Source: Pseudomonadota bacterium (GTDB taxonomy: Bacteria > Desulfobacterota > Binatia > Binatales > Binataceae). Taken from it: 64,000 bases of DNA. The notes below the pieces were generated by a model. It was not told the DNA's origin, did not search any database, and saw only the letters and a list, made by a program, of their open reading frames with translations. The stretch covers positions 387,144 through 451,143 of the forward strand of contig JAJPHI010000009.1 in the NCBI GenBank assembly GCA_021325355.1, in the 5' to 3' direction. Position numbers and translations under genes: made by a program. Every line of letters begins with the position of its first letter. Position 1 is the first letter of the stretch. Of this stretch, positions 573 through 52,958 are shown in pieces.

Positions 573-1010
573 ATGTTGAACCATGCCCAATTTGCGTGGA
601 GTGCTCGCAGAAAACTCCTCTTCACTCTTGCTGTAGCAGTCTTCGCTCCGCCAGCGGTTTATGCCGGCAATGCGATTAATCAGGCAACCACCGGCCAACC
701 CGGCACGGCCGTGGTGATTTCGAACACCGCGCCGACGGAGCTGCTGGCGGCAAACCGCGCGCGCTACGGCTGGACGATTTACTGTGCCGGCACCGCCGGT
801 GGTATCGCGGCGATGGTGATGCCGGGCGATTCGGCCGGCGACCCGGCAAGCCCCGCCCCATCCCAGACCGTCGGTTTTCCGGTTCCCGCCAATGTCCTGA
901 TGACCGACCAGGATTTTCCGCTGCGCGGCCTTGACGCGATCCATCAACGTCTCGATGCGGAAGCGCAGGGGAGCGCACCGGTCAGTTGCTACACCTGGGA
1001 GGAGCAATAA
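573..1010 (+). CDS. Small secreted hypothetical protein (N-terminal hydrophobic signal-like segment), first gene of a tightly packed plus-strand operon
   Basis: ORF begins just after a local AT-rich stretch (about 480-570). The N-terminus 'RKLLFTLAVAVFAPPAVYAG' resembles a signal peptide. It ends 3 nt before the next gene. No recognisable family. Confidence 0.4.
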   Translation: MLNHAQFAWSARRKLLFTLAVAVFAPPAVYAGNAINQATTGQPGTAVVISNTAPTELLAANRARYGWTIYCAGTAGGIAAMVMPGDSAGDPASPAPSQTVGFPVPANVLMTDQDFPLRGLDAIHQRLDAEAQGSAPVSCYTWEEQ

Positions 1011-1013
1011 GCG

Positions 1014-2702
1014 ATGCTGGTCCGACGAAATCCACTGCTCCGCCGCGCCAGCGCTTGCCCCGCCCCGCCCTATCGCCCGCTGGCGAGCTTTCTTCTGCCC
1101 GCGCTCCTCGTCGCGATTTTCGGCGTTCCGTCGGCAATGGCGGCCCCGTGGGGCAACGGCGCCGGCGGCGGTGGCGGCGGCGCCTCCGGCAAGGTCAACT
1201 CGGGAGCTTCGGGCCAGCTCGGCTACTACTCGGGCAGCGGCACGACGATTTCCGGAACGACGATCGGCGGCGACTGTACTTTCGCGGCACCCAGCACCTT
1301 CACCTGCACCAAAACCAACGGCGTAAGCTTCGCCCCGTCGGCCACGATCAATACGACCAACGCGTCGAATATCAGTGCCGGCACGCTCAGCGCCGCACGC
1401 CTTCCGGCACTTGGCGGCGATACCACATCCGTAGCCGGCTCCGCGGTCACCACCACCCAGCAGGTGCATCTTCATACCCGCGCGATTACCGGAACAGGCA
1501 CCGCGGATACGGCTTCGTGCAGCACCGATCAGGTAATCACGATCAATTCGACCGGCGGCAACTTTATCGAGAATCTGCCCGCCACCACCGGGCTGCCGCC
1601 GAACTGTTCCTTCCTGATTATCAACCTGATGACTTCCGCCAACGTCACGATCACGCCGAATGCCGCAAACGGCGACAAACTTAACGGCGCTTCAAGCTAT
1701 GTTTTGGCGCCGCCCAATCGCGCCACCTGGATACAGTTCGTCGCTCCCAACAGTTGGTCAATCATCGCCGATACTCCGGCCGGCGGCGGCGATGTTGCCG
1801 GTTCGAATCAGAGCTGGCTCGTCACCGGTCTGAACGGCGTGCCGATGCAGGGGGCGCTGGCCAAAGCCAACGCGGTCTGGTGCTACGACGGCTCGGCCCA
1901 CATGGTCGAGTGCGATCTCGCCCAGTATCCCCAAGTCGTCCTCAACAACGATCCGACTACCGGCACCACCCTGAACACGCTGACCAAGATTCAGTCCGGT
2001 AATGCAATTATCGCGGCGACCACGGATTCAGCCGGGATGGTCGGGATTACCGTCGCGGGCGCCGGCAAGAGCGGCGCCGCCACTATCCAACTGACTGGTC
2101 TGGCGACCTGCGTCTTCGATAATTCCACCACGGCGGGCGATTTTGTCGGGATCAGCGCCAGCGTCCCGGGGGATTGTCACGACGCGGGCGCCAACGCCGG
2201 CGCGCTGCTCCAGTCGCAGAAAATCGGCAAGGTTCTCGCCACCAATTCTGGACCGGGCGCGTATCAAATCATGCTCTATCCGGTCGGCGAAAACGTTCGG
2301 ACTCAGGTCGATTATGGGTCTCAGGGCGCGAGCGCGGCGCCGACCACCAGCGGCGGCTCGGCTTACTTCAATCTCCAGGGCCCGCTCTCCAGCGCCACCG
2401 AGGCCAACGTCAACAACGGTCCGGTGCCGGCCAATCACGTCTTCAGCAATCTGTGTTGCGTCTCGACGGTCGCTTCCGGCAGCGCCGTCAATTGGTCCGT
2501 CGTTCTGCGGGCGAACGGCACCGTTCCGTCGGGCGAGCCCAACGTCACCCTGAGCAACACCACGGCGCCGGTGTGCGACACCATCGATACCTACACCAGC
2601 TCGGCCGCCGGCACTGATCTGCTCGACCTGAAGATCACCTGTAACGGCGGTACCTGCGCCTCCGGCAGTCTGGTCCGCTGCTCCACGCTCGAAACCTACT
2701 GA
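1014..2702 (+). CDS. Large secreted Gly/Ser/Thr/Asn-rich protein, possible beta-structured adhesin or tail-fibre-like protein
   Basis: Sec-type signal (basic N-terminus, hydrophobic core, 'AMA|AP'). Poly-Gly tract 'GNGAGGGGGGASG'. Highly T/S/G/N-rich with many Cys. Motif 'NISAGTLSAARLP' is reminiscent of phage tail-fibre proteins. No enzymatic motifs. Confidence 0.6.
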   Translation: MLVRRNPLLRRASACPAPPYRPLASFLLPALLVAIFGVPSAMAAPWGNGAGGGGGGASGKVNSGASGQLGYYSGSGTTISGTTIGGDCTFAAPSTFTCTKTNGVSFAPSATINTTNASNISAGTLSAARLPALGGDTTSVAGSAVTTTQQVHLHTRAITGTGTADTASCSTDQVITINSTGGNFIENLPATTGLPPNCSFLIINLMTSANVTITPNAANGDKLNGASSYVLAPPNRATWIQFVAPNSWSIIADTPAGGGDVAGSNQSWLVTGLNGVPMQGALAKANAVWCYDGSAHMVECDLAQYPQVVLNNDPTTGTTLNTLTKIQSGNAIIAATTDSAGMVGITVAGAGKSGAATIQLTGLATCVFDNSTTAGDFVGISASVPGDCHDAGANAGALLQSQKIGKVLATNSGPGAYQIMLYPVGENVRTQVDYGSQGASAAPTTSGGSAYFNLQGPLSSATEANVNNGPVPANHVFSNLCCVSTVASGSAVNWSVVLRANGTVPSGEPNVTLSNTTAPVCDTIDTYTSSAAGTDLLDLKITCNGGTCASGSLVRCSTLETY

Positions 2703-2742
2703 GCAGTTCGCGGCCGCGACTGCGTCCAAGGATACCCGACCA

Positions 2743-4092
2743 ATGGAACTCTCCGGATTCCGCTGCGCCGACCCGCGACTCAGCTCCGCGCACCGCGCGC
2801 GGCCACGTCATTCGAAGTTCGCCCTGCGATGGCTCCGACGCGGACTGCTGACCGCGCTGCTCGTCGTCGCCGTGGTTCTGCCGCTTCGCGCCGCCTCAGG
2901 ACCGCTCACCTCGGCCCAGGGATGGGTGGCGGCGCTGATCGATTCGCCTGCCGCCTTTTACACCCCAAATCCCGCCTTCACTCCCGGCTTCGAGATGGGG
3001 CTGTACCAGGGCACGAATGTGCTGGCCACCGCTTCCGCGCCGCACGACGCCAAACTTAAAAGCGCCGCTGCGGCGGTCGTCCCCTTATGTCAGAACGGCA
3101 ACCCGCCGAGCGGCTCCTGCGCCGAGGGCGGAGCCGGCAAAATCGGCGTCGCCCATATCGGCTTCTCGGTTTCGATCCAACAGACCTGCACCGGACCGAA
3201 CCATGCCAACGGTCTGGTCGCGCCGACTCCCTCAGCCTGCGCGACCGGCACCGCCGACTATACGCTCTACCAGGATCAGCAGGGCGCGACGCCCACCATC
3301 GCGCCGACGGTCTACTTTGCCGATTGTGCGCAGCCCTCGGCCACGATGGATAAATGGGCGGCGCAGATAGGTATCAACTCTCAAACCACCGCTCCCTATT
3401 GGTACAACTGCGTAAATACCGTTCTGCCCAACGAGGGGCTGGTCGCCAACCAGATTGAGGCGGTCACGATCGAAGCTGCCGCCGGTTCACCGTCCGCGGG
3501 CTTTTCCTCGATGTCCTCGTTGTCCCATACGCCGTGCCAGGCCGGTGACGAGGCCACCGTCGCTGCCTGCTATGGGGAACAACAGACCGGCATCGTCCTG
3601 CGCGAGCTTTTTCAGCAGTGGCCGCATCTGAAGATCGCCTACCTGTATTCGCGCGCCTACGGCGGATGCGCGGCGGCGGGCACGCTCAATCCCGAACCCT
3701 ATGCCTACGAAGACGGCTTTACCGTCCAGTTCCTGATTCAGGCGCAGATTCGCCAGGCCGACAACAACGGTCCGCAAGACAGCGAGGCCGGCAATCTTGC
3801 CTACAGCGTCGTTCCGGCACTCTCGTGGGGCGGCTATCAATGGGCCAACGGCACGACGCCCAACAGTGAAGGCCTGTCGTGGCCCTGCACTGACTTCACC
3901 ACGACTGACCAGACGCATTTCGTCAACGGCGGTTACCAGAACTCGGCAAATACCATGATCAATTTCTTTCTCGGCACGAGCGTCACCGGCGCCAACCATC
4001 AGGCGTACACCGGATGGATCCGCCCGAATGGCGCGACGCCCGCTCCCACCGCCTCCTCCACTCCCACCATGCTCTTCTCGTTTCACCGCTAA
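2743..4092 (+). CDS. Secreted Cys-rich hypothetical protein
   Basis: Hydrophobic signal-like segment 'LLTALLVVAVVLPLRAASGP'. 449 aa with many Cys, Trp and Tyr, and no recognisable catalytic motif. Start codon uncertain. Confidence 0.5.
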   Translation: MELSGFRCADPRLSSAHRARPRHSKFALRWLRRGLLTALLVVAVVLPLRAASGPLTSAQGWVAALIDSPAAFYTPNPAFTPGFEMGLYQGTNVLATASAPHDAKLKSAAAAVVPLCQNGNPPSGSCAEGGAGKIGVAHIGFSVSIQQTCTGPNHANGLVAPTPSACATGTADYTLYQDQQGATPTIAPTVYFADCAQPSATMDKWAAQIGINSQTTAPYWYNCVNTVLPNEGLVANQIEAVTIEAAAGSPSAGFSSMSSLSHTPCQAGDEATVAACYGEQQTGIVLRELFQQWPHLKIAYLYSRAYGGCAAAGTLNPEPYAYEDGFTVQFLIQAQIRQADNNGPQDSEAGNLAYSVVPALSWGGYQWANGTTPNSEGLSWPCTDFTTTDQTHFVNGGYQNSANTMINFFLGTSVTGANHQAYTGWIRPNGATPAPTASSTPTMLFSFHR

Positions 4093-4096
4093 GCCG

Positions 4097-4900
4097 ATGA
4101 AAATCAGCGCTGTCATAGTCTCAGTCGATTACGGCGATATCCTCGTCTGGACCCTGCGGGAAAATCGTCACGTCTTCGACCGGCTCGTCGTCGTCACCAG
4201 CCCGCGCGATTTCCGTACCCGTCGCGTCTGCGAGCACTTCCATATCCGGTGCGAAGTCACCAGTGCCTTTTATGCGGGCGCATCGGGGGTGGATCTGCTC
4301 GCCTTCAACAAGGCGGCCGGCATCAACCACGGCCTGCGTCAGTTGATGCAGGAGCGCCCCCCGGACCGCGACGATTGGTACGTCCATCTCGACGCCGATA
4401 TCGTCCTGCCGCCGCGCACTCGCGAACTGCTGCACAAGGTCGATCCCGACCCCGCGTGTATCTACGGCATCGACCGCATGATGTGCACGTCGTTCGATGA
4501 CTATCTGCGTTATGCGGCGCTGCCGGCGCCGCAGCATCAGAACCAGATCTTCGTCCGCGCCGACGCCTTTCCGCTCGGCGTGCGCGTGGCGCGGCTTGAT
4601 CCCGACGGCAGCGGCTATGTCCCGATCGGTTTCTTCCAGATGTGGAACCCGGTCGGCTCGGGCGTGACTGACTATCCGCAATATCACCAGTCAGCCGCCC
4701 GCTCGGACATGCTGTTTGCACTCCGATGGCCCCGGCGCCGCCGACACCTCATCCCCGAGATTGTCGCGACCCATCTCGAGTCCGAAGTCTCGCCGATGGG
4801 CCAGAACTGGAACGGCCGCCGCAGTTGTTCTTTCGGTCCGCCGCCCGCGTCCTCGATTCTCGAACCAAATCCGCAACCTTATGAATGTGAGAGGCAATAA
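4097..4900 (+). CDS. GT-A fold glycosyltransferase-like protein (family-2-like)
   Basis: Internal ATG giving N-terminus 'MKISAVIVSVDYGD', typical of the GT2 N-terminal strand. DXD-like 'HLDADIV' motif. The ORF track 5' extension (from 4028) is Pro-rich and probably untranslated. Confidence 0.5.
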   Translation: MKISAVIVSVDYGDILVWTLRENRHVFDRLVVVTSPRDFRTRRVCEHFHIRCEVTSAFYAGASGVDLLAFNKAAGINHGLRQLMQERPPDRDDWYVHLDADIVLPPRTRELLHKVDPDPACIYGIDRMMCTSFDDYLRYAALPAPQHQNQIFVRADAFPLGVRVARLDPDGSGYVPIGFFQMWNPVGSGVTDYPQYHQSAARSDMLFALRWPRRRRHLIPEIVATHLESEVSPMGQNWNGRRSCSFGPPPASSILEPNPQPYECERQ

Positions 4901-4903
4901 AGC

Positions 4904-5680
4904 ATGATTGCAGGAAAACTCGGCAAACGTCCCGCCCGTCGCGACTTCCGCACGCTGCGTATCAGCAACTATCTGCGCCGTCTGCCCCCGCCGCGTCCCG
5001 ATGGCGTCGACTGGGGTGCGGCCGTGCGCAAGGATCACCTCGCGCTCGGGATGCTCGGCAACGACCAGTACGGCGATTGCTTCTGGGCGATGGCCGCGCA
5101 TGCCTTCATCACCTGGAACGCCAACGCCGGTCGCAAGGTTGAATTCACCACCGATGCGGTACTCAATGCGTACTGCGCCTACCTCGGTATCCCGCGCAGC
5201 CAGCTCAATGATCAGACCGACAACGGCACCGTGATGCTCGACGGGCTCAAGTTCCTGCGCACCACCGGACTCGTTGACGCCTCCGGCAAGGTGCACAAAA
5301 TCGGCGCCTTCGCCGCCGTCGATGCCAAAAACGAGACGGAGGTCAGGGTCGCGCTCGATCTCTTCGGCGAGCTGCTCATCGGCGTCGAATTCCCCGGAGC
5401 GTGGATGAACACCAACGTCTGGGACGTCACCTCGGACGCTGTCGCAGGCGGGCATGCGATCAACGGCATTGCCCGCGACCTCAAGGGTGCGCCGGCGGTC
5501 GGTATCAATATCGATACCTGGGGCGCGGACAACTATTGGCTCACCTGGCCGGCCCTCGCGCAGTTCTGTGACGAGCTTTACGTCACCGTGCCGACGGACT
5601 GGATCGAGGACAACGGTCGCGCGCCGAGCGGACTCGATCTGAAGGCGCTGCTCGCGGACCTTGCCGCGGTCACCGCCTGA
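4904..5680 (+). CDS. Papain-like (C1-like) cysteine peptidase, cytoplasmic (no signal peptide)
   Basis: 'QYGDCFWAMAAHA' resembles the Q...C-x-W-A catalytic Cys region of papain. 'GGHAINGIA' is a candidate catalytic His. 'NIDTWGADNYW' resembles the papain N-S-W-G oxyanion/Asn region. Starts 4 nt after the previous stop. Confidence 0.55.
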   Translation: MIAGKLGKRPARRDFRTLRISNYLRRLPPPRPDGVDWGAAVRKDHLALGMLGNDQYGDCFWAMAAHAFITWNANAGRKVEFTTDAVLNAYCAYLGIPRSQLNDQTDNGTVMLDGLKFLRTTGLVDASGKVHKIGAFAAVDAKNETEVRVALDLFGELLIGVEFPGAWMNTNVWDVTSDAVAGGHAINGIARDLKGAPAVGINIDTWGADNYWLTWPALAQFCDELYVTVPTDWIEDNGRAPSGLDLKALLADLAAVTA

Positions 5681-5688
5681 CTCGGCAT

Positions 5689-5892
5689 ATGAAAGCACTT
5701 GCTTCGCTGTTGAGTGACCTCAAGACCAGTTGCGCCGGTATCGCCCTCATCGCGATCACCGTGCTCTTTCTCACCGGCCGTCTCGGGGTCAATCAGTATC
5801 TCGCCGCGGTGGGCGCGCTCGCCGGCGGCGGCCTCGTGATGGCGAAAGATGCTTCGCCGGTAACGCCGGAGCAGAAGAAGGAACTGAAATGA
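5689..5892 (+). CDS. Small single-pass membrane protein (holin-like or i-spanin-like topology)
   Basis: 67 aa with one strongly hydrophobic segment 'GIALIAITVLFLTG' and a charged C-terminus 'PEQKKELK'. Its stop overlaps the next start (ATGA at 5889-5892). Confidence 0.5.
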   Translation: MKALASLLSDLKTSCAGIALIAITVLFLTGRLGVNQYLAAVGALAGGGLVMAKDASPVTPEQKKELK

Positions 5893-6281
5893 ATACAGCT
5901 CTTGCCAAATTGACTATCGCGTCGCTGCTCTGCCTGACGCTGCTGTCGCTCGGATGCGCCACCCAAAACGCCGGCATCACCTGGCCCATCAGCATCGGTG
6001 GTCAGCAAATCCTGGTTAACTCCGCGCCGGTCCTGACCATGCAGGCCGAGCAATCCTGCAACGCCCAGGCGCAGGTCGAGTACAATCTGAACGTCGCCGC
6101 CTGCGAGGGCAAGCTCGCCCCGCTCTTCCCGGTGCAGTTCGCCGGCGTCAACGCGCAGGCGCAGGTTCTCTGCCAGGCCTTCGGCTACACCAACTCGAGC
6201 GGCCAGCTTGCCGTGCCCGAGACCATCCAGTTGGGCGGATGCGCCACCGCGGCCAGCACGGTCAAACGCCGCACGTCCTAA
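5889..6281 (+). CDS. Lipoprotein (signal peptide with lipobox 'LSLGC')
   Basis: Internal ATG at 5889 gives 'MNTALAKLTIASLLCLTLLSLGCATQNAG', a classic lipoprotein signal plus Cys. Gln/Ala-rich mature part with paired Cys. Translationally coupled to the upstream small TM gene. Confidence 0.55.
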   Translation: MNTALAKLTIASLLCLTLLSLGCATQNAGITWPISIGGQQILVNSAPVLTMQAEQSCNAQAQVEYNLNVAACEGKLAPLFPVQFAGVNAQAQVLCQAFGYTNSSGQLAVPETIQLGGCATAASTVKRRTS

Positions 6282-43076: not shown

Positions 43077-44267
43077 ATGGAAGCACCGGCGGGCGAATTC
43101 AATTTCACGCGGCTTGAGCGCGTGGTCTTTGGTCCGGGAAAAATCACGACGCTCGGTCGCGAGCTGGAACGGCGCGGACTCGAACGCGCGATCGTCGTGA
43201 CCGGCAACAGTCTTGGCCGCTCGAAACTCCTCGATAAGGTGACCGGCACGCTGGCCAGCCGCTGCGTCGCGGTCTTCAAAGGCGCGCGCCAGCACGTGCC
43301 GCTCAGCACGGTGCAGGCGCTGATCGAGGAGATCAAACGCGCCCGCGCCGATTGTCTGGTCAGCTTCGGCGGCGGCAGCCCGATCGATACCGCGAAAGTG
43401 GCCGCGGCGGCCGTGCTGACCGGGCGTGATCCGCTCGCCAGCGCCCGCCATATCGATTTCACCAACGCTGCCGCCGTCACTGACAGCAAAGCCGATCTGG
43501 TTGAGATTGCCGTACCGACCACGCTTTCCGCCGGCGAATACACGCCGGCCGGCGGTGTCACCAACGAGGCCACCCTGGTCAAGGGCGGCGTCGTCGATCC
43601 GCGCCTGCAGCCGCGCACGGTCATCAACGATCCGACCCTGACGGTCGAGACCCCTGATTGGCTCTGGGTGGCGACCGGGATGCGCGCGCTCGACCACGCG
43701 GTCGAGGCCATCTACTCGATCCGCCACCAGCTTCTGACCGATACGCTGGCAACGCGCGCCATCGCACTCCTCTTCGAGCATCTGCCGGCCTCGATCAAAA
43801 CCACCGGCGATGCCGCCATCAGCCATCGCGGCTACTGCCAGATGGCGGCCTGGCTGTCGATCTTCGGCGGAATGAACACGCGCTTCGGCGTTTCACACGC
43901 GCTCGGCCATCAGATCGGTCCCAAATGGAATGTTGCTCACGGCGTGACCTCGTGCATCACGCTGCCGCATGTGATGCGCTTCATGGCCGAGATCGCGCCC
44001 GAGCGCTTCGGGCCTATCGCCGAGGGCCTGGGCGTGACGTTCACACCGGAGGAGGCGCGGCGCAGCGCGCTTGAATGCGCCGACCGGGTCGCCGCCTTTA
44101 TCGCGCAGTTCGACGTGCCCCATAATCTCAGGGAGGCCGGCGTGCCGCGCGCCGAGCTCGGTCAGATTGTCGCGCCCGTGTTCGAAGAGATCGATCGCGC
44201 GAAGGTGGTGGATCGCGCCGTCTCGCGCGAGGAAATCGTGTCGCTGCTCGAACGCGCGTACGCCTGA
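43077..44267 (+). CDS. Iron-containing alcohol dehydrogenase family protein (maleylacetate reductase-like)
   Basis: 'ERAIVVTGNSLGRS' and 'VSFGGGSPIDTAKVAAAA' Fe-ADH GGGS motif. His-rich metal site 'HALGHQIG'. Confidence 0.8.
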   Translation: MEAPAGEFNFTRLERVVFGPGKITTLGRELERRGLERAIVVTGNSLGRSKLLDKVTGTLASRCVAVFKGARQHVPLSTVQALIEEIKRARADCLVSFGGGSPIDTAKVAAAAVLTGRDPLASARHIDFTNAAAVTDSKADLVEIAVPTTLSAGEYTPAGGVTNEATLVKGGVVDPRLQPRTVINDPTLTVETPDWLWVATGMRALDHAVEAIYSIRHQLLTDTLATRAIALLFEHLPASIKTTGDAAISHRGYCQMAAWLSIFGGMNTRFGVSHALGHQIGPKWNVAHGVTSCITLPHVMRFMAEIAPERFGPIAEGLGVTFTPEEARRSALECADRVAAFIAQFDVPHNLREAGVPRAELGQIVAPVFEEIDRAKVVDRAVSREEIVSLLERAYA

Positions 44268-44290
44268 ACGTCCGACAGGGAGGAATCCGC

Positions 44291-44692
44291 ATGAGCGTTG
44301 AAAGCAACAAGCAACTCGTCACCGACTTCTGGAAGGCTTTCGCCGGCGGCGATATCAAGACCGCGTTCGCGATGCTCTCCGACGAAGTAAGCTGGCTGAT
44401 TCCGGGCAACCTCCCCGAGCTCTCCGGCCTGCGCAAGGGCAAGGCCGAGATTCTCAACTTTGCCCGCACTGCAGCCAAAACCTTCCCGAGCGGGCTTCGG
44501 AGCGAAATTCGGCGCGTCTATGGCGACGGCGAAACGGTGCTGGTCGAGATGACCAATCGCGGCAAACTTTTTAACGGCCGCGACTACGAGAACGAATACT
44601 GCTTCGTCTTCGAGATCGAAGGCGGCAAAATTCGCCGCGTGCGCGAGTACGTCGATACGCACAAGGTGCATGAGCTGAGCGCCTCGGCCTAG
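44291..44692 (+). CDS. NTF2-like (SnoaL/ketosteroid isomerase-like) protein
   Basis: 'QLVTDFWKAFAGGDIKTAFAMLSDEVSWLIPGN...IRRVREYVDT' typical SnoaL-like fold sequence features. AGGGAGGAA SD upstream. Confidence 0.7.
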   Translation: MSVESNKQLVTDFWKAFAGGDIKTAFAMLSDEVSWLIPGNLPELSGLRKGKAEILNFARTAAKTFPSGLRSEIRRVYGDGETVLVEMTNRGKLFNGRDYENEYCFVFEIEGGKIRRVREYVDTHKVHELSASA

Positions 44693-44720
44693 GCCGCTGA
44701 CGCGGCGCGCCGTGATCCAT

Positions 44721-46148
44721 CTAGGCGCGCGCCTTGAGCATCCGGTAGACCGGCGCCGCGCTGAGCGCGATCAGGAAGCCCGGCCAGGTGTAGCGCGGTT
44801 TCACGACGAGCAGATCGGCCATCAGGCTGAGCGCGGCGCCGACGTAAAGCGCCGGCAACCATGGATAACCCGGCACCCGGTAGCTGCGAGGTGCCGCCGG
44901 CCGGCGACGGCGCATCACGAACACCGCACCGACGGTCAGCGCATAGAACAGAAGCTGGGTGAAGATGACGTAGTCGAGCAGCTCGGAGTAGGTGCCGGAA
45001 AGCGTCAGCAGGGCCGACCAGACGCCCTGCACGACGAGCGCAACATCCGGCACCGCGGCCCGATTCAGACGTCCCGCCGCGGCAAAAAACAGCCGGTCAT
45101 GCGCCATCGCCCAGATAACACGCGCGCCGGTCAGAATCAGACCGTTCGCGCATCCGAAGGTCGAAATCATGACCAGCACGGCGATCACGAGCGGTCCCCG
45201 GCCACCCAGGATCGAGCTCATCGCGGCGGTTGCCACGCGGTCGTCGGCGGCACCGGCGATACCGCGCGCAAAGGCGCTGCCGGCGTGCGGCGCAGCGCCG
45301 CTCGCCACGGGCAGTTCGCAGAGGTAGGCGACGTTGGTCAGCAGGTAGAGCAGAATCACGAGGCCCGCGCCGAGGGCGAGTGCGCGCGGCAAGTCGCGCC
45401 GTGGCTCCCGCGCTTCGGTGGCAACGAAGGTCACCGTGGCCCAGGCGTCCGACGAGAATAATCCGCCGACCATCGCGGCGCCGAAAGCCGCCGGTCCCAC
45501 GCTCGCGCCGTCGCCGAAAAATGCGCGCAGAGTGCCGAAATTCCGCGCGATCGCCCCGGGGTCCGGCGCGATCAGGCAGCCCAGCACGATAAGCATCAGG
45601 AGCGCCCCGACCTTCGCCGTCGTAAAGGCGTTTTGCACCGTCTTGCCGAGGTCGAGACCGCGCAGATTGAGCGCCGTCAGAAGCGCAATCACGCCTACTG
45701 CCACGATTCTTTCGTGGGACAGGCCGACCGTGCCGACGCCGAAGAAAAGCGTCGCGCCGCACCAGGGAAAGAGCACCGCGGCAAAGCGCGCAAACGCCAC
45801 CGCGACCGCCGCCACCGTCCCCGACTGGATCACCAGCAGCAGCGACCAGCCATAGGCGAAGCCGACCAGGTCGCCGTATGCCTCGCGAAGGAAGACATAT
45901 TGCCCACCCGCCTCCGGCATCATTGCCGCCAACTCGCCGTAACTGAGCGCGCCGAGAATCGTCATGAAACCGCTGGCGATCCACACGCCCAGCAGTCCCG
46001 CGGGCGAGCCGACCTTGCGCGCGATATCCGCCGAAACGATAAAGATGCCCGACCCGATCATCGAGCCGGCGACGATCATGGCGCAGTCAAACAACGAGAG
46101 CCGTCGGGCAAAGCGGCGTTCAGATGAGCGCCCGCGCGACTGCGTCAT
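44721..46148 (-). CDS. APC-family amino acid permease
   Basis: 'LSLFDCAMIVAGSMIGSGIFIVSADIA' amino acid permease N-terminal signature. 12 TM segments. Confidence 0.8.
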   Translation of the reverse strand: MTQSRGRSSERRFARRLSLFDCAMIVAGSMIGSGIFIVSADIARKVGSPAGLLGVWIASGFMTILGALSYGELAAMMPEAGGQYVFLREAYGDLVGFAYGWSLLLVIQSGTVAAVAVAFARFAAVLFPWCGATLFFGVGTVGLSHERIVAVGVIALLTALNLRGLDLGKTVQNAFTTAKVGALLMLIVLGCLIAPDPGAIARNFGTLRAFFGDGASVGPAAFGAAMVGGLFSSDAWATVTFVATEAREPRRDLPRALALGAGLVILLYLLTNVAYLCELPVASGAAPHAGSAFARGIAGAADDRVATAAMSSILGGRGPLVIAVLVMISTFGCANGLILTGARVIWAMAHDRLFFAAAGRLNRAAVPDVALVVQGVWSALLTLSGTYSELLDYVIFTQLLFYALTVGAVFVMRRRRPAAPRSYRVPGYPWLPALYVGAALSLMADLLVVKPRYTWPGFLIALSAAPVYRMLKARA

Positions 46149-46277
46149 CACCGGGCTTCTCGCCCATCCTGCCACCGAGCAGGGCGCCCGGCGAGTGCGG
46201 AGAAGTAACTTAAGAGAAGGAAGGAGACCTGTGCGTCGTCGTCCCCGCGACGCACAGGTCGCGTCGTGGAATTACGG

Positions 46278-46484
46278 TTAGGAGCCGGACGGCGACGCCA
46301 TCGGGCTTGCCTCGGAACTCGCACTGGCCTCAGGCGCCGCAGCCGAGGCCGATTCTGCCGGGCTCGCTTCACTGCCCGCGGCGGACGCTGAGGCCTCGGG
46401 CGAGGAAGTCTCCTCCGTGGATTTCTGGCACGCCGTCAATGCAAGAAATGCCGGAATCAGAGCGAAGATGAGGAACTTGCGCAT
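46278..46484 (-). CDS. Small lipoprotein, Ala/Ser/Glu/Pro-rich (family member 3 of the small secreted protein family, lacks His block)
   Basis: ATG 46484 preceded by AAGGAGG SD. Signal plus lipobox 'MRKFLIFALIPAFLALTAC'. C-terminus 'SEASPMASPSGS' matches the C-termini of 39337-39612 and 39928-40185. Confidence 0.6.
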   Translation of the reverse strand: MRKFLIFALIPAFLALTACQKSTEETSSPEASASAAGSEASPAESASAAAPEASASSEASPMASPSGS

Positions 46485-47097
46485 TACACCCTCCTTAGTA
46501 AAGTCGGCAGCAAAGCAAGTCTGCGCCAAGCCGATGCCTGAACGCCGGTAGGATACTTCACGCTAAAACCGACTTCAAGGTGACTCCCGCGCGATTATCA
46601 CCGGTTACTTGTCGGCGCAGGTCGGCCCGCTTTTGCGGCCGTTCGCGCGAACGCCCTTCGCCAGTGGCGGAGGGCCATCATGCCCGTCGGGAGCAGTTGG
46701 ATGAGCCGTGCTACGGCCCGCAGCAGAGCAGGTCTCGTGGTCTTTGCTCCTCGCCTCAGGCAAATTTTTTGACTCAAATCCATGCGTATGGCATATCTCG
46801 CTCGGTTGGGGGCAAGTTGCGCGGCAGGAGGAGGGGGCGTGGACGCTTTTCGCAGCTCGTCGGCGCGACGAGCGGAGGTTCATCATAATCGCCTGGTAGT
46901 CGAACCTGAGCTGGATATGCATCGTTCGCAACCGCGATCGTCGCGGATGGTCAGGTTTCTCGCTTTGTTTCGACGGCTGATTACAACTTCGGAAGTGACC
47001 ACCGAGCCGCCGAAACGCTCGATTCAGCGCGAGCTCGAGGAAAACTGGCCCAACGGCACCGCCGACTGAGCGTCGAGCCGCGCCGGCGGCGCGCTGA

Positions 47098-48585
47098 CTA
47101 ACGCGCGAAGGCGGTGGCCTGGGCTGGCGGCCCTGCCGCCGCCGCGAAAGCATCGCGCGCGGCATTCATATATGGAGTCGGTGCGATACCGATAAGGACC
47201 ACGGCCAAGGCCGCGATGGCAACCCCGATCAGTACCCCGGGGCTCGCCCCCGATGGCTCAATCTCCGGGGTCCCCTCCTGCATGTACATCGCGACGATCA
47301 CCCCGATGTAGTAATAGGCGGAGATCGCGCTGTTGATCACCGCAATTACCACCAGCGGGACGTGGCCACTATCGACCGCGGCGGCAAAGACATAAAGCTT
47401 GCCGACGAAGCCGGCCAGCGGCGGCACTCCGGTCAGCGACAGCATGAAGAGGGTCATCGCCGCCGCGAGTCCCGGACGGGTTTGGGCGAGCCCGCGATAA
47501 TCCGCGATCCGGAGCCCGGCCGTCGCGCGCCGCTCGAGCACGATCACGACGGCAAACGCCCCCAGCGTCGCGAAGGCATAGGCGACCAGATAGTAAAGCA
47601 CCGCCGCCGCCGAGCCTGCCGCCGTCATCCCGACGAGCGCATAGCCCGCATGCGCGATCGCGGAATAGGCGAGCATCCGCTTGATATTGTCCTGGACCAG
47701 CGCGACCACGTTGCCGACCGTCATGGTCAGCGCCGCCAGCACCCAGAGGACGCCGCTCCACTGCGCCGCCGCCGGCCCGAGATAGATCATGAAGACGCGC
47801 ACGAAGCTCGCGAACGCCGCGAGCTTGACGCCGGTCGCCATAAAAGCGGTGATCGGCGTCGGCGCACCCTCATAAGCGTCCGGGGTCCAGGCGTGAAACG
47901 GCGCCGCGGCAACCTTGAAGCCGAAGCCAATCACCATCAGCCCGACCCCCAGCTCGAGGTAGGGTTGTGACGCCGCCCGCGCGACGATCGCGGCGCGGAT
48001 ACCGTCAAGATGGACCGTGCCGGTCGCGCCGTAAATCAGTGCGATACCGTAGAGCAGGAAACCGGTGGAAAAGGCGCCGAGCAGGAAGTACTTCAGCGCG
48101 GCCTCGCTCGAGCGCGCTTCGCGCCGCACGAAGCCGGCCAGCGCATACACCGCGATCGACATCGTTTCGAGACCGAGGAAAACGATGATCAGATCGCCCG
48201 CCGCCGCCATCAGCATCATGCCGAGCACGGCAAACAGGACGAGGCTGTAGTATTCCGCGCCGGCGAGCCCGTTGTCGGCGGCGTAGTCGAGCGAAAGCGC
48301 CACGCTTATCGCCGCCGCGGCCTGAATGACGATTTCGAAAAAGGCCGTGTAATCGTCCGTCAGCAGCGCCCCGCCGAAGGCCTCGGCGTTGACGCCGATC
48401 GTGAAGAGGGTGCAGACGAAACTGACCAGCAACACCCCCAGCGCGAGGATTCCTAGCCCCGCGCTGTCCTCGTCCTCGAGCCGCACACCGACCAGCAGAA
48501 TGATTGCGGCGCCGACCGCCACGGCGATAAGCGGCAGCAGCGGCAGCCACGCGAAACCCAGGTTGGCGAGATTCAAGGTGTTCAT
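47098..48585 (-). CDS. nuoN: NADH-quinone oxidoreductase subunit N
   Basis: 14-TM antiporter-like subunit. N-terminus 'MNTLNLANLGFAWLPLLPLIAV'. Position after nuoM. Confidence 0.85.
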   Translation of the reverse strand: MNTLNLANLGFAWLPLLPLIAVAVGAAIILLVGVRLEDEDSAGLGILALGVLLVSFVCTLFTIGVNAEAFGGALLTDDYTAFFEIVIQAAAAISVALSLDYAADNGLAGAEYYSLVLFAVLGMMLMAAAGDLIIVFLGLETMSIAVYALAGFVRREARSSEAALKYFLLGAFSTGFLLYGIALIYGATGTVHLDGIRAAIVARAASQPYLELGVGLMVIGFGFKVAAAPFHAWTPDAYEGAPTPITAFMATGVKLAAFASFVRVFMIYLGPAAAQWSGVLWVLAALTMTVGNVVALVQDNIKRMLAYSAIAHAGYALVGMTAAGSAAAVLYYLVAYAFATLGAFAVVIVLERRATAGLRIADYRGLAQTRPGLAAAMTLFMLSLTGVPPLAGFVGKLYVFAAAVDSGHVPLVVIAVINSAISAYYYIGVIVAMYMQEGTPEIEPSGASPGVLIGVAIAALAVVLIGIAPTPYMNAARDAFAAAAGPPAQATAFAR

Positions 48586-50141
48586 TGACGGGCGAGCATC
48601 CTCGACGGCGCCGGGCGCCGGGCCAGCGGCACAGGAGCCTGCGCTTCAGCCTGCATCGCCACGGCCGCATCGACGCGGTTGATCACCCCGGCGACCGACG
48701 GCTCGATCCGCCGCAGCAGCGGGCGCGGATAGAGACCCATGAACAGGATGAGCGCGATCAGCGGGACCATCACGGCGATTTCGCGCGCCGTCAGATCGGC
48801 GAGCGTGGCATTGACGGCATGCGTGATCGGTCCCCACATCACGCGTTCATAGGCCCACATCATGTACAGCGCGCCGAGGATTACCCCGATCACCGCGAAG
48901 TACACCGCCAGCCGGAATTTCAGAAAAGTGCCGAGCAGGACCAGGAACTCGCCGACGAAGCCATTCAGCCCCGGCAATCCGATCGAGGACAACATAATGA
49001 ACATGAAGATCGCCGCATAAACCGGAATACTCTTCCAGAGCCCGCCGAAATCCGCGATCTCGCGGGTATGCCGGCGCAGGTAGAGCATCCCGACCAGCAA
49101 AAACAGCGCGCCGGTCGAAAGTCCGTGGTTGAGCATCTGATAGACCGCACCATCGACGCCGGTCGGATCGAGGGCGAAGATGCCGAGCATCACGAAACCC
49201 AGATGGCTCACCGAAGAGTACGCGATAAGTCGCTTCAGGTCCGGCTGCACCATCGCCACCAGCGCGCCATAGATGATGCCGACCACGGCCAGCGCGAGAA
49301 ACCACGGCGCCGCCTCAACCGCGACGACCGGAAAGAGCGGAATGGCGAAGCGCAGAAACCCGTAGGTGCCCATCTTGAGCATGATGCCGGCGAGGATCAC
49401 CGAACCGGCGGTCGGCGCTTCGGTATGTGCGTCGGGCAGCCAGGTATGCACCGGCCACACCGGCACCTTGATCGCAAAGGCGATAGCGAAGCCGGCAAAC
49501 AACCATCGCGCCTCGGTCGCCGACAGCGGCACCCGGTACAGCGCCGGCAGATCGAAGGTCAGATTGTCGAGGCGCGCATGCGCCGCGGCCGCCAGATAGA
49601 GCATCGCCACCAGCATCAGCAGCGATCCGAACATCGTGAAGAGGACGAATTTGAACGTCGCGTAGAGCTTGCGGCCGTGACCCCAGATGCCGATCAGGAA
49701 GTACATCGGCACCAGCATCACTTCCCAAAAGACGTAAAAGAGGATCAGGTCGAGCGCGAGCAGCGCGCCCAACAGACCGGTCTCGAGCACCAGCACGAGG
49801 AAACAGAACTCGCGGGCGCGCATCGCGATATCGCCGCCGCCCGAATACAGCAGCGACAGCGTTATCAGCACGGTGGTCAGAATCACCAGGAACAGGCTGA
49901 TCCCGTCGATACCCAGATGGTAGGAGATGCCGAACTGCGGAATCCAGGCGTAGTGTTCGACGAACTGGTAGTCCGCCCGGCCCGGTTCGAACGCCACCAG
50001 GAGATAGAGGCTCAGGGCCAGCGGCACGAGCGAAAAGATGAACGCCGAACGCCAGACGACTTCATCGTCGTCGGGCAGCAGCATCAGCGCGCCCGCCCCC
50101 AGCAAGGGCACGAAAACCAGGATGGTCAGCGCGAAGCTCAT
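48582..50141 (-). CDS. nuoM: NADH-quinone oxidoreductase subunit M
   Basis: Antiporter-like subunit with conserved 'WLPDAHTEAPTAGSVILAGI' motif. Confidence 0.9.
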   Translation of the reverse strand: MSFALTILVFVPLLGAGALMLLPDDDEVVWRSAFIFSLVPLALSLYLLVAFEPGRADYQFVEHYAWIPQFGISYHLGIDGISLFLVILTTVLITLSLLYSGGGDIAMRAREFCFLVLVLETGLLGALLALDLILFYVFWEVMLVPMYFLIGIWGHGRKLYATFKFVLFTMFGSLLMLVAMLYLAAAAHARLDNLTFDLPALYRVPLSATEARWLFAGFAIAFAIKVPVWPVHTWLPDAHTEAPTAGSVILAGIMLKMGTYGFLRFAIPLFPVVAVEAAPWFLALAVVGIIYGALVAMVQPDLKRLIAYSSVSHLGFVMLGIFALDPTGVDGAVYQMLNHGLSTGALFLLVGMLYLRRHTREIADFGGLWKSIPVYAAIFMFIMLSSIGLPGLNGFVGEFLVLLGTFLKFRLAVYFAVIGVILGALYMMWAYERVMWGPITHAVNATLADLTAREIAVMVPLIALILFMGLYPRPLLRRIEPSVAGVINRVDAAVAMQAEAQAPVPLARRPAPSRMLARQ

Positions 50142-52060
50142 CGGATCACGACTCGATAAAGGTAGTACGCGCCGATCCCCAGCGCGCCGCAGAGATAGAG
50201 CAGCGCATAATGCTGCACGTTGCCTGACTCGGTGCGGCGCAATTCCTCGCCGCCTTCGAGCAGGGTCAGGCCGGTGCCGTTGACCAGCCCGTCGATCACC
50301 GCGCCGTCAACGCCGCGATGAAGCACGTAGGCGGCGACCCAGAAGAGCGGCCGCGCGATCACCGCGTTGTAGAGCTCATCGACGTAGTATTTGTGCCGCA
50401 ACAGCGAATCGAGCAGCCGTGCCTTGTAGGCTACCAGCACCGGCAGCCCCGGCATCTGCGCGTAGCACACCACTGCCGCCGCCACGCCGACGATCGGTAT
50501 CGCGATCATCACCAGAGCGAGACCGCTTCCCGGCGTCGCCAGCTCCGCGCCCGGAGGGATGACCACCGGGGCGAGGAAGCGATTGAAAGCCTCGCCCCAG
50601 AGGAAGCCCCTCGGCAGCCCCACCCAGCCCCCGCCGACCGAGAGCAGCGCCAGCACGATAAGCGGCACGGTCATAACCGCCGGCGCATCGTGCAGATGGG
50701 CCGCCTTCGACGGCTCGACGCGGGATTCCCCATAGAAGGTCAGGATGATCAGGCGGAAGATATAAAACGCCGTCAATCCGGCGGTGATTACGCCGATTAG
50801 CCACAGCGTCGGATGACCCGACGCAAAGGTCGCCTCGAGAATCTGGTCCTTCGAGAAATACCCGGCAAACGGCGGGATACCGCTGATCGCCAGCGCCGCC
50901 GTCAGCATCGTCAGCCACGTGATCGGCATCGATCCGCGCAGCCCGCCCATCCGGCCCATCTCCTGCTCGCCGTCGAGCTCGTGAATGATCGCGCCGGCGC
51001 ACAGAAACAGCAGCGCCTTGAAGAAGGCGTGCGTCATCAGATGGAAGATGCCGGCGCTGAAGGCGCCCACGCCCGCCCCGAGCATCATGTAGCCGATCTG
51101 ACTGATCGTCGAATAGGCCAGCACGCGCTTGATATCGGTCTGCACCATCGCGATCGTGGCGGCAAAGAACGCCGTCACCGCGCCTACCACCGCCACCACC
51201 GTCAGCGCCGCCGGCGCGAGGGTGAAGAGAAAGCCGAGGCGCGTCACCATGTAGACGCCCGCCGTGACCATCGTCGCGGCATGGATAAGCGCGCTGACCG
51301 GAGTCGGCCCGACCATCGCGTCGGGCAGCCATACGTAGAGCGGGATTTGCGCCGATTTCCCTGTTGCGCCAAGAAAGAGCAGCAGCGCCGCCGCTGTCGC
51401 GTACGGTTGCAGGAGCGCCGCCTGATGGCTCATGCCGGCGAACGTGACCGTCCATACCCCGCCGCGAGCGAGCGCATAGACGATCGTGAAGATGCCGAGC
51501 AGGAAACCCGCATCGCCGACGCGATTGACGATAAACGCCTTGCGGCCGTTGTAGGCGTATTCAGGGTTGGTGTACCAGAAGGCAATCAGCAGGTAGGAAC
51601 AAAGCCCGACGCCCTCCCAGCCGACGAACATCACCACGAGGTTGTCCGCCAGAACCAGGATCAGCATCGACGCGGTAAACAGGTTCATGTAGGTGAAGAA
51701 CCGCGCGTAGTCCTCGTCGTGCCCCATGTAGCCGACGGAGTAGACGTGGATCAGCGCGCCGACGCCGGTCACGACCAGGCACATAATCGCCGTCAGCGCA
51801 TCGAAGCGCAGCGCCATCTCGACGTGAAAAGGTCCGGCGGCGATCCAGCGCCAGGCGGCAAACCTGAGCGCCCCGCCGGCCGGCAGACTCACGAGCCGCG
51901 CCAGCGACCATACCGACACCGCGAAGGCGAGTCCCACCACGCCGGGGGCGACGACGTTCACCGCGCGCCGCCCACCGCGGCGCCCGCCGAACAGGGCAAA
52001 GAGGACGCCGCCGAGCGGTAGCAGCGGGATTAACCCGAGCGGCCAGAACTGCTGTGTCAT
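50138..52060 (-). CDS. nuoL: NADH-quinone oxidoreductase subunit L
   Basis: 640 aa. 'WLPDAMVGPTPVSALIHAATMVTAGVYM' conserved motif and long C-terminal amphipathic helix region. Confidence 0.9.
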   Translation of the reverse strand: MTQQFWPLGLIPLLPLGGVLFALFGGRRGGRRAVNVVAPGVVGLAFAVSVWSLARLVSLPAGGALRFAAWRWIAAGPFHVEMALRFDALTAIMCLVVTGVGALIHVYSVGYMGHDEDYARFFTYMNLFTASMLILVLADNLVVMFVGWEGVGLCSYLLIAFWYTNPEYAYNGRKAFIVNRVGDAGFLLGIFTIVYALARGGVWTVTFAGMSHQAALLQPYATAAALLLFLGATGKSAQIPLYVWLPDAMVGPTPVSALIHAATMVTAGVYMVTRLGFLFTLAPAALTVVAVVGAVTAFFAATIAMVQTDIKRVLAYSTISQIGYMMLGAGVGAFSAGIFHLMTHAFFKALLFLCAGAIIHELDGEQEMGRMGGLRGSMPITWLTMLTAALAISGIPPFAGYFSKDQILEATFASGHPTLWLIGVITAGLTAFYIFRLIILTFYGESRVEPSKAAHLHDAPAVMTVPLIVLALLSVGGGWVGLPRGFLWGEAFNRFLAPVVIPPGAELATPGSGLALVMIAIPIVGVAAAVVCYAQMPGLPVLVAYKARLLDSLLRHKYYVDELYNAVIARPLFWVAAYVLHRGVDGAVIDGLVNGTGLTLLEGGEELRRTESGNVQHYALLYLCGALGIGAYYLYRVVIR

Positions 52061-52101
52061 TCGGATGACCTCTAGCGTGCCTCGTCAATCAGCGTGCCGC
52101 G

Positions 52102-52404
52102 TTACCAGCGCAACAGCTTCAGCTCATCCGCATTGAGCGTCATCCGATTGCGGAACACGGCAATGATGATGCCGAGACCGACGGCGGCCTCGGCCGCCGC
52201 AACGGTGATCGCAAAGAAGACGATCACCTGCCCCTCGGCATTGCCGAGCTGGCGACCAAACGCGACGAAAGCAAGATTGACGGCATTCAGCATCAGTTCG
52301 ATGGACATGAACATGACAATCACGTTGCGGCGCAGCAGCACGCCGGCGACGCCGATCACGAACAACACGGCGCTCAGCACGACGAAGTAGTTAAGCGGCG
52401 TCAT
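52102..52404 (-). CDS. nuoK: NADH-quinone oxidoreductase subunit K
   Basis: 100 aa '[49 protein letters not shown]...'. It is the C-terminal part of the over-extended ORF 52102-53475. Confidence 0.9.
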
Positions 52405-52955
52405 CCCGCGGCGCTCCGCAGACGGTCGGCGACGTCCGACGGCGGCGCCGCGACGGCATTGGTGCCGGGAATTCGGCGCGCCAGACCAATCGCTCCAACC
52501 ATCGCCGCCAGCAGCAATGCCGACGTCACTTCGAACGCCACGAGGTAGTTGGCAAAGAGCAGTCGCGCGAGACTGCGCAGCGATCCGTAATCGACCGGCA
52601 GCGGCGCCGCGGGCGCCGGCCCGGCATGAACCAGCAGCGCGCACAGCTCGGCACCCAGCGCCGCCGCGGCCAGCGTGCCGATAACCTTCAGGCCGATACG
52701 CTCGGTCGCGAGCCCCTCGCGCTGCAGGTTGAGCAGCCAGATGACGAACAGGAACAGCACCATGATCGCGCCGACATAGATGATTATCTGCAGAAAGCCC
52801 AGCGCCTCGGCGCCGAGCCCGATGAACAGCGCCCCGATATCCAGCAGCGCCAGCGCCAGCGCCAGCAGACAATGCACCGGATGGCGCTGCAGGATGACCC
52901 CCAGCGCACTCACCACCGCGATAATGGCGAAAAACGCGAACAGCCAGAGCGGCAT
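52401..52955 (-). CDS. nuoJ: NADH-quinone oxidoreductase subunit J
   Basis: '[35 protein letters not shown]' NuoJ/ND6-like. Confidence 0.85.
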
Positions 52956-52958
52956 CCC

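Follow-up and report, generated by a model that had tools for sequence, protein, structure and literature searches.

Seven open reading frames (ORFs) on one strand form a compact island at positions 573 to 6281 of the 64,000-nucleotide stretch of DNA analyzed here (the window), which comes from a metagenome-assembled genome of “Candidatus Binataceae” and in which the island lies between host genes of the chromosome. Two adjacent genes of the island are our main subject: one encodes a predicted glycosyltransferase (GT), GT267, and the other a papain-fold cysteine peptidase, pep258, which is 100% identical to an annotated protein of such a genome. Both genes span exactly the coordinates assigned to them in an earlier, sequence-only reading of this DNA, which had suggested that the two enzymes could constitute a cytoplasmic module for glycosylating and processing the exported products of neighboring genes. 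The interpretation that we favor, with confidence somewhat better than even, is a different one: pep258 would be a phage-type, C1A-like wall peptidase and GT267 an independent phage accessory GT, both derived from the lysis cluster of a Mu-like phage and retained by the host. The two genes and the motifs discussed below are as follows.

4097..4900, plus strand: GT267, with its ATG at 4097 and its TAA ending at 4900; it starts 4 nucleotides after the stop of the preceding gene, orf449
4391..4399, plus strand: codons for D99-A-D101, the DxD motif of GT267
4904..5680, plus strand: pep258, with its ATG at 4904 and its TGA ending at 5680; a leaderless, xylellain-like papain-fold cysteine peptidase of phage family phrog_19005
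5060..5080, plus strand: codons for N53 to C59 of pep258 (N-D-Q-Y-G-D-C), the oxyanion-hole equivalent and the catalytic Cys
5447..5455, plus strand: codons for G182-G183-H184 of pep258, with the catalytic His
5513..5524, plus strand: codons for D204-T205-W206-G207 of pep258, the equivalent of papain N-S-W-G

The AlphaFold model of pep258 (predicted local distance difference test [pLDDT] score of 94.1; predicted template modeling score of 0.91) places C59 as the first residue of a helix (residues 59 to 74) and H184 in a strand (residues 180 to 191), an arrangement like that in papain. When the model was compared with PDB by Foldseek, the top 50 matches were all C1A peptidases, the first being xylellain of Xylella fastidiosa (PDB 3OIS; E = 1.5e-10; template modeling [TM] score of 0.64), with cathepsins B, K, and L and Der p 1 among the further matches. 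A profile built from 42 relatives of pep258 likewise matched xylellain by sequence (E = 3.8e-6), its sole significant sequence-profile match in PDB; in the alignment, the oxyanion-hole Gln falls opposite N53, the catalytic Cys opposite C59, the GGH of xylellain opposite GGH184, and its S-W-G opposite T205-W206-G207. The papain fold that had been proposed from the sequence is borne out by the model and by these comparisons, as is the candidate catalytic His in “GGHAING,” which is H184. Conservation was counted across 156 unique members of the peptidase family: H184 (156/156) and W206 were invariant, N53 and C59 were present in all 154 members having a residue there, and position 205 was always T or S. 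Two of the proposed motifs held in part. In “Q-x5-C-x-W-A,” the Cys (C59)-x-W-A portion is present but the Gln is not, the actual spacing being N53-x5-C59 with Q55 only three residues before the Cys; in “DTWGADNYW,” read as N-x-W-G, the T/S-W-G is conserved but an equivalent of the Asn is not, as position 204 (Asp in pep258) is V or I in 133 of the 156 members and D or N in only 8. Measured against papain itself, the position six before the Cys (Gln19 in papain) is a chemically similar, invariant Asn (N53) throughout the family, and the Asn175 feature is absent, with (T/S)-W-G the only conserved part of that motif. Catalysis by pep258 would therefore be expected to involve Cys and His with a third residue, or a dyad.

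Counting against a formal assignment, pep258 gave no match to the Pfam C1 model PF00112 at E ≤ 1 and is covered by no Pfam or NCBIfam model, while one of its relatives scored 17.8 bits against PF00112, for which the cut-off is 20.7; since that threshold is not reached, homology to the C1 peptidases is argued from profile and fold comparison only. Given this, and the missing Gln19 and Asn175 features, we describe pep258 as C1A-like (xylellain-like) without assigning it to C1. In several relatives, inserts of homing-endonuclease size, read by eye as inteins, interrupt the gene precisely where the active site is encoded: in three of them (P0223, P0279, and P0329), the +1 residue after the intein is the catalytic Cys, the intein follows five residues past the catalytic Cys in P0262, and it comes after the GGH motif in P0300. 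Inteins usually occupy conserved sites of genes important to phages.

As the sequence-only reading had noted, pep258 lacks a signal peptide, and this holds across the family: 79 of 80 genome-encoded relatives start directly at a conserved M-x(2-3)-[KR]-L-G-K motif. The sole N-terminal extension among the 80 was found in Mycobacterium sp. IS-836 (L222:7908-8744), where a twin-arginine-like RRDLFRYAAAIGAAAGIAGS precedes the KLGK motif. N-terminal membrane segments were seen in some other family members.

Over its full length, pep258 matches phrog_19005, a phage family listed in PHROGs under “unknown function” (E = 1.3e-24); beyond that match, the curated libraries searched (Pfam, NCBIfam, PHROGs, and PDB by sequence) gave nothing for pep258 or GT267. 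The peptidase family is large, comprising 7007 cluster representatives at a cut-off of E ≤ 1e-3 and still 3414 at E ≤ 1e-30, and the domain is found fused to a variety of wall-directed partners. In one uninterrupted ORF of a viral contig (L147), a Phage_lysozyme domain (residues 13 to 150) and a PG_binding_1 domain (178 to 232) precede the peptidase domain (243 to 494). A second viral contig (L094) encodes the peptidase domain together with an Ig-like Big_1 domain and an endolysin of phrog_3513 with NlpC/P60-type motifs (E = 2.6e-18). Other fusions join the peptidase domain to an AmpD-like N-acetylmuramoyl-L-alanine amidase (Amidase_2; P0282), to a lysostaphin-like M23 peptidase (P0324), to an SLT-type transglycosylase like the internal virion protein D of the T7 group (P0231), and, in viruses of methanogens, to a PeiW/PeiP-like pseudomurein endoisopeptidase with pseudomurein-binding repeats (P0237). 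A further protein, P0281, whose C-terminal domain had been guessed to be Rv2525c-like, was not counted as a fusion because it had no phage match; neither P0231 nor P0281 had a PDB sequence match.

Gene neighborhoods point in the same direction as the fusions. Within two genes of the peptidase at ~75 viral loci, a census whose heuristic gene calls lessen the weight it can bear, we found GH25 (8 cases), Transglycosylas (2), GH108 (2), Amidase_2 (1), CHAP (1), and recognized holins (4). In phage MW202816, an amidase gene lies directly upstream and its end is overlapped by the peptidase gene. Small membrane proteins made up 69 of 281 neighbors of the peptidase versus 30 of 260 neighbors of the GT family, which served as the control (2.5x; Fisher P = 9e-5). 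From these fusions and neighborhoods, we consider it probable that the peptidase family is a phage cell-wall lysin module. Canonical holin-dependent endolysins are leaderless, which would account for the missing signal peptide of pep258. Members of the family are combined with wall hydrolases in modular fashion and a paralogue of pep258 sits in a lysis cassette (see below); the window copy itself lies outside any phage or prophage. We found no description of a C1-fold lysin domain in the literature that could be searched.

The hosts of the family narrow the likely target. Copies in genomes were found in Solirubrobacterales, Gaiellales, Leifsonia, Mycobacterium, Xanthobacteraceae, Methylobacterium, Polyangia, and Planctomycetes, among others, in addition to those in viruses of methanogens. 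The only envelope component common to these monoderms, diderms, and methanogens is a wall cross-linked by peptides, so that the shared target of the family is most likely wall peptide. A role as a protease of outer-membrane tethers (Lpp type) was set aside, given that the hosts include monoderms and methanogens. The idea that the family represents the “lysin A protease” of cultured actinophages was likewise rejected, as only one metagenomic phage and three Komagataeibacter phages matched; with three family queries, the Komagataeibacter phages were also the only deposited phages named after cultured hosts to carry a member. In one of them, phiKX2 (L169, LC644976.1:43397-44131), the family member closes the late operon, directly ahead of the integrase, among genes that are all annotated as hypothetical. 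Many peptidases from high-G+C loci (among them L091, L093, L098, L099, L102, L106, L128, L129, L139, and L166) end in a Pro/Thr-rich linker and a conserved helical motif of ~35 amino acids (roughly W..H.G.N..A......W...KGL) without a Pfam match, which may be a wall- or membrane-binding tail.

The origin of the window copy is indicated by a Mu-like transposable prophage of the same lineage (L006/L007:200-16500), which holds a paralogous pair (GT ~75% and peptidase 75% identical). Its genes run from transposase, MuB-like ATPase, Gam, GemA, and Mor, through a 125-amino-acid lipoprotein, a 100-amino-acid lipoprotein, the GT, the peptidase, and a 58-amino-acid membrane protein, to DUF2730, Mu gp27, terminase, and portal. 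DUF2730 comes two genes downstream of the peptidase; no other hydrolase is encoded in that slot. This prophage ends shortly past the portal: host genes follow, and no head or tail genes intervene. The two island genes that follow pep258 in the window are also related to phage genes.

5689..5892, plus strand: orf67, encoding a small, holin-like membrane protein; of its two hydrophobic segments one is clear and the other Gly/Ala-rich, and its C terminus is charged
5889..6281, plus strand: orf130, a lipoprotein with the lipobox LSLGC and a Cys-rich mature part; its start overlaps the stop of orf67 (ATGA)

The product of orf67 is 42% identical to the 58-amino-acid protein that follows the prophage peptidase. 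That of orf130 is homologous to a lipoprotein whose gene immediately precedes the peptidase gene in L008, an unrelated phage contig (34% over 93 amino acids), and by eye resembles the 125-amino-acid lipoprotein of the prophage. No match to a holin or other family was found for orf67 in Pfam, PHROGs, or NCBIfam, and orf130 matched no described spanin family. In phage Mu, the lysis cluster comprises the signal-arrest-release (SAR) endolysin gp22, the spanin gp23/23.1, and the “releasin” gp25, which is a DUF2730 protein (Chamblee et al. 2022, PMC9239132); DUF2730 was encoded within five genes downstream of the endolysin in 34 of 34 phages, among them ones whose endolysins are cytoplasmic (PMC9239132). 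As in Mu, the block in the Binataceae prophage fills the slot between Mor and DUF2730/gp27/terminase/portal. Unlike in Mu, it contains a soluble cysteine peptidase instead of a SAR muramidase, as well as two lipoproteins and a GT, and the window island has lost DUF2730 and every other Mu gene. The gene order of the prophage and the homologues of orf67 and orf130 together show the last four island genes (GT267, pep258, orf67, and orf130) to be a fragment of what is, as predicted from gene content, the lysis cluster of a Mu-like phage of the same lineage.

The GT was assigned by fold. The model of GT267 (pLDDT of 91.3) consists of alternating strands and helices with a Rossmann-like, nucleotide-sugar-binding domain, and Foldseek returned only GT-A enzymes and related nucleotidyltransferases, at a TM score of ~0.5 (AvpGT, chondroitin polymerase, GnT-I, and viral GT2s). 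The DXD that had been recognized in “LDADIV” corresponds to D99-A-D101 at the end of a strand (residues 93 to 99), and both Asp residues are invariant in 48 relatives, in agreement with the GT-A fold; D14, D38, K72, D126, and H226 are invariant as well. In Pfam, the best match was to PF13704, at 13.2 bits versus a cut-off of 27.5, and NCBIfam gave none. The family comprises more than 1000 homologues, a minority of which carry PF00535 or PF12804 in precomputed annotation. In IMG/VR it occurs in 286 places, on contigs with a G+C content of 0.29 to 0.65, but no PHROG covers GT267 and no match was found in 50,697 deposited phage genomes.

Neighborhoods of the GT differ from those of the peptidase. 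In 18 viral loci, the GT gene comes directly after the portal gene, with terminase one gene further, in the head-morphogenesis module, and the same position was found in a 63-kb phage contig (L173). Other neighbors include terminase, thymidylate synthase, homing endonucleases, RNA ligase, and a T4-type capsid gene; on low-G+C, T4-like contigs, the GT gene adjoins thymidylate synthase, RNA ligase, or the gp23-type capsid gene. Lysis genes were not enriched in GT neighborhoods. Positions near portal and capsid genes may reflect glycosylation of the virion or of nucleic acid. Several relatives (P0168, P0187, and P0197) carry a low-complexity linker and a C-terminal hydrophobic helix resembling a tail anchor, which suggests that the GT acts at the cytoplasmic face of the membrane. 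Candidate acceptors would be a precursor of an envelope glycan or a protein, either of the virion or exported; nucleic acid would be a less likely one. GT267 is thus best described as a soluble, predicted DxD GT-A glycosyltransferase-like protein of an independent phage accessory family without a constant partner.

GT2-like enzymes are familiar from other phages, examples being the seroconversion protein GtrB and the glycosyltransferases suggested to glycosylate mycobacteriophage capsids. GT267 resembles phage GT-A enzymes in its Rossmann-like half, its invariant DxD, and its carriage by phages. Its best solved match is AvpGT (PDB 9JMA), a nucleoside 3'-O-glucosyltransferase. To any solved or BFVD structure, however, GT267 reaches TM scores of only ~0.5 to 0.6 at an identity of at most 15%; its conserved C-terminal half (GFFQ[LM]W, YP..H, WPR..R.LIPE..HL, and NW.GR) has no counterpart, and, unlike GtrB systems, it is not accompanied by GtrA or GtrC partners.

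Adjacency of the two genes is the exception rather than the rule. The GT was not found within 8 kb of the peptidase at any of 79 further viral loci or 80 genomic loci, and outside the “Candidatus Binataceae” lineage direct adjacency was seen in contig L064 only. A separation of 3.5 kb, with terminase and portal in between, characterizes one phage group (L012/21/25). From the absence of the GT at these ~159 other peptidase loci, and from an orthologous island that has no peptidase (L174, described below), we conclude that GT and peptidase are not obligate partners but neighbors by shared phage ancestry.

The remaining three genes of the island precede the GT and look exported.

573..1010, plus strand: orf145, the first island gene, encoding a small protein with a signal-peptide-like N terminus
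1014..2702, plus strand: orf562, encoding a Gly/Thr/Ser/Asn-rich protein with a hydrophobic N-terminal segment
2743..4092, plus strand: orf449, encoding a protein predicted to be exported, whose small family occurs mainly in “Candidatus Binataceae”

Export and membrane calls for these three proteins, as for orf130 and orf67, were read from the sequences (hydrophobic N termini, lipobox, and hydropathy scan), and they agree with the earlier description of the neighbors as exported. Matches were lacking for orf145 in Pfam, PHROGs, and NCBIfam and for orf562 in these libraries and in the 50,697 deposited phage genomes; orf449 also had no match in those phage genomes. Twelve homologues of orf449 were found. 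Its paralogues, two of them in the same genome, stand alone in ordinary chromosomal contexts without a GT, and the protein is of a host-type exoprotein family. Among the distant relatives of orf449 are fusions to leucine-rich repeat (LRR) or Big_2 domains and a protein annotated by name as a lysophospholipase L1-like (SGNH) esterase, and a D-x-x-H motif (DQTH) near its C terminus, read by eye, is like that of SGNH hydrolases.

Junctions between the seven ORFs are 3 to 8 nucleotides long or overlap (ATGA), so the island looks like one operon. In a longer copy of the contig, a CDP-alcohol phosphatidyltransferase gene flanks it upstream, and genes for a radical S-adenosylmethionine (SAM) protein, ptsP, truB, rbfA, and infB follow downstream on the opposite strand. 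The G+C content of the island is unremarkable. Direct or inverted att-like repeats around it were limited to chance GC-rich matches, a scan for promoters and terminators did not exceed what shuffled sequence yields, and no paralogues of its genes occur elsewhere within the window.

The same seven genes, all intact, occupy the same site beside the radical-SAM gene and ptsP in a second genome (L170), and synonymous sites between the two are saturated or nearly so (proportion of differing synonymous sites, ~0.6 to 0.8). Where the synonymous rate could be estimated, which left out orf562 and GT267, the ratio of nonsynonymous to synonymous substitution rates (dN/dS) in this comparison was 0.04 to 0.17 for island genes versus 0.03 to 0.19 for flanking host genes (truB, 0.19). 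The most constrained island gene was orf449 (0.04; ~80% identical in L170 and L174), and the orf145 orthologue in L170 was 72% identical (0.17). A third genome (L174:1-3400, JGI 3300038796) has orf562 (a partial copy; orf562 also has its orthologue in L170), orf449, the GT, orf67, and orf130 at the same site, and there the peptidase is replaced by an 82-bp spacer; orf67 thus has orthologues in both L170 and L174. The island is under purifying selection and persists in three genomes or more, of which one lacks the peptidase. That selection marks it as domesticated: the island is a selected mosaic, in which part of a phage lysis cluster has joined host exoprotein genes, and not a recent wreck. 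It could otherwise have been taken for a decaying prophage remnant without present function, as it contains a fragment of a lysis region only, without structural or replication genes, and has lost the peptidase in one genome. Genes that stay intact in two genomes at or near synonymous saturation, constrained to a degree like that of truB, and an island that is syntenic in three genomes make this highly improbable.

The module proposed in the sequence-only reading can be weighed against the same data. It would have the GT glycosylate the co-transcribed orf145, orf562, and/or orf449 proteins before export and the peptidase process them. In keeping with it, the seven genes are packed as one operon, the order orf562-orf449-GT is kept in three genomes, the GT stays beside orf449 even where the peptidase is lost, and orf562 is rich in Ser, Thr, and Asn with 12 N-x-S/T sequons. 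That sequon count, however, is not a significant enrichment over the 8.2 expected (P = 0.09). One island does without the peptidase, the associations of the peptidase family are with wall hydrolases, not secreted substrates, neither family keeps these neighbors elsewhere, the neighbors of the phage GTs (portal, terminase, and thymidylate synthase) are quite different, and the orf449 paralogues have no GT beside them. With the pair not obligate, a joint cytoplasmic glycosylation and processing module is decidedly unlikely; the GT by itself might nevertheless modify the co-transcribed exported proteins or the envelope.

As to how the products of the phage-derived genes would act, pep258 would be made in the cytoplasm without a leader and would reach the wall only once the membrane had been opened, most plausibly by the holin-like orf67, there to cut peptide stems or cross-links. 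GT267, presumed to be metal dependent from its DxD, would act at the inner face of the membrane, where the C-terminal anchors of its relatives suggest such enzymes work, on an envelope glycan precursor or a protein. What the island does for its host at present is a separate question, on which our confidence is much lower than in the overall interpretation. Its gene content makes a holin/lysin-type secretion device or an envelope-modification cassette conceivable. Since the island in L174 lacks the peptidase, the benefit to the host does not need that enzyme.

Type 10 secretion, the export of proteins by a holin and a peptidoglycan hydrolase, as in Serratia ChiWXYZ, offers a model for the first of these roles. 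By gene content, the island is similar in that chromosomal genes for a phage-type wall hydrolase, for a holin-like protein, and for a lipoprotein lie next to exoprotein genes, outside a prophage and under selection; it is dissimilar in that one orthologous island (L174) has no hydrolase. If orf67, the peptidase, and the lipoprotein formed a nonlytic wall-opening device of this kind, they would let the exoproteins pass across the wall and outer membrane, and the GT would modify the cargo or the envelope. Cotranscription of a phage-type lysin, a holin-like protein, and a lipoprotein with three exported proteins would fit, as would purifying selection across genomes that are saturated or nearly so at synonymous sites and the membership of orf449 in a host-type exoprotein family. 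We nonetheless regard such a device as quite improbable: L174 has lost just the peptidase, a loss that holin/lysin secretion should not tolerate, and neither orf67 nor orf130 matches a described holin or spanin family.

Several further observations weigh against our favored interpretation. At the level of the island, its 5.7 kb contain no other phage genes (structural or replication), and the lipoprotein has no i-spanin to pair with. As orf67 and orf130 persist in L174 although the peptidase is absent there, neither of them need be a lysis protein in the island. Co-occurrence of GT and peptidase in three lineages (the window with L006 and L010; L064; and L012/21/25) is far above what the rarity of the two families in viral contigs would lead one to expect, so that some functional link, perhaps a loose one, may exist between the two enzymes; alternatively, both may simply favor the lysis/packaging junction, a place where accessory genes collect. 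At the level of the peptidase family, xylellain is a general intracellular protease and is not known as a wall enzyme. In Solirubrobacterales, the peptidase gene is chromosomal, leaderless, and syntenic with metabolic genes, with no visible holin, which fits a cytoplasmic role better; it stands in conserved synteny with acetyl-CoA synthetase in ~20 genomes, and in ~7 Solirubrobacterales genomes (L193:6842-8756 and six others) it is preceded by a gene for a 362-amino-acid protein similar to 5'-methylthioadenosine/S-adenosylhomocysteine (MTA/SAH) nucleosidase (PNP_UDP-like; PDB 3eei, E = 4e-4). This context hints at a nonphage role for the peptidase there, so that members of the family may not all serve a single role. 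Near loci of the L193 type lie genes for an IS630-type transposase and for a collagen-like secreted protein. Finally, the papain-like enzymes known to act on the wall fall into the NlpC/P60-CHAP cluster rather than the papain (C1) cluster (PMC10318531). Acquisition of xylellain-type C1A peptidases by Myoviridae and Siphoviridae has been described (Kordis and Turk 2023, PMC10380794).

These family-level points lead to the alternative that pep258 is a xylellain-like intracellular protease, whether regulatory, housekeeping, or directed by phage against host, that acts on cytoplasmic proteins and not on the wall. Besides the Solirubrobacterales synteny, the leaderless state of 79 of the 80 genomic copies and the identity of the closest structure would agree with it, and the conserved N-terminal 31 residues could serve as a pro-segment. 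Six independent types of fusion to wall hydrolases or wall-binding domains, the over-representation of endolysins and holins beside the peptidase, and the presence of N-terminal membrane segments in some members and a Tat-like leader in one argue the other way, leaving this alternative improbable in our estimation.

Two groups of known enzymes invite comparison with the putative wall peptidase. It shares with xylellain a short single domain with an N-terminal extension and no leader, along with alignable Cys, GGH, and (S/T)WG motifs. It differs from xylellain in sequence (17% identity), in having Asn in place of the oxyanion Gln throughout its family, and in a position equivalent to Asn175 that is hydrophobic in 85% of members; xylellain, for its part, has not been linked to wall hydrolases or lysis cassettes. 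With the CHAP (C51), NlpC/P60 (C40), and PeiW/PeiP (C71) modules it has in common a leaderless Cys/His peptidase domain that occurs in lysis cassettes, alone or fused, a likeness in which the role of pep258 is a predicted one. Those modules, however, have a compact NlpC/P60-CHAP or transglutaminase-type core (“cluster II,” PMC10318531), whereas the pep258 family has the full two-lobe papain/cathepsin fold (“cluster I”). The pep258-type domain stands together with modules of those types in single proteins (L094 and P0237), which makes it a module in its own right rather than one of their variants.

If our assignment of the peptidase family holds, ~7000 clusters without a Pfam model would constitute a new class of endolysin catalytic domain, built on a papain/cathepsin fold that has so far not been associated with wall lysis and reaching hosts from Actinomycetota and Proteobacteria to methanogenic archaea; it would be useful for phage annotation and for the engineering of lysins (enzybiotics). 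The GT family is uncharacterized, with its more than 1000 relatives and 286 viral contigs and none in cultured phages, and its frequent position right after the portal gene yields testable ideas on glycosylation of the virion or envelope. The island itself offers a small, clean case of the domestication of phage lysis genes in a poorly known phylum. A more far-reaching proposal joins these strands: a full papain/cathepsin-fold domain would be a widespread, unrecognized phage-lysin module acting on murein in monoderms and diderms and on pseudomurein in methanogens, and in Binataceae a Mu-like fragment bearing it, together with the GT, would have been domesticated with exoprotein genes as a host-controlled device for wall opening, secretion, or envelope-glycan modification and not for phage release. 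Taken as a whole, this proposal is rather unlikely and is put forward tentatively.

Elsewhere in the window, positions 44000 to 54000 stand out for a strongly positive AT skew (0.12 to 0.30), compared with values near zero in most of the window, and the long ORFs of this segment lie mostly on the minus strand.

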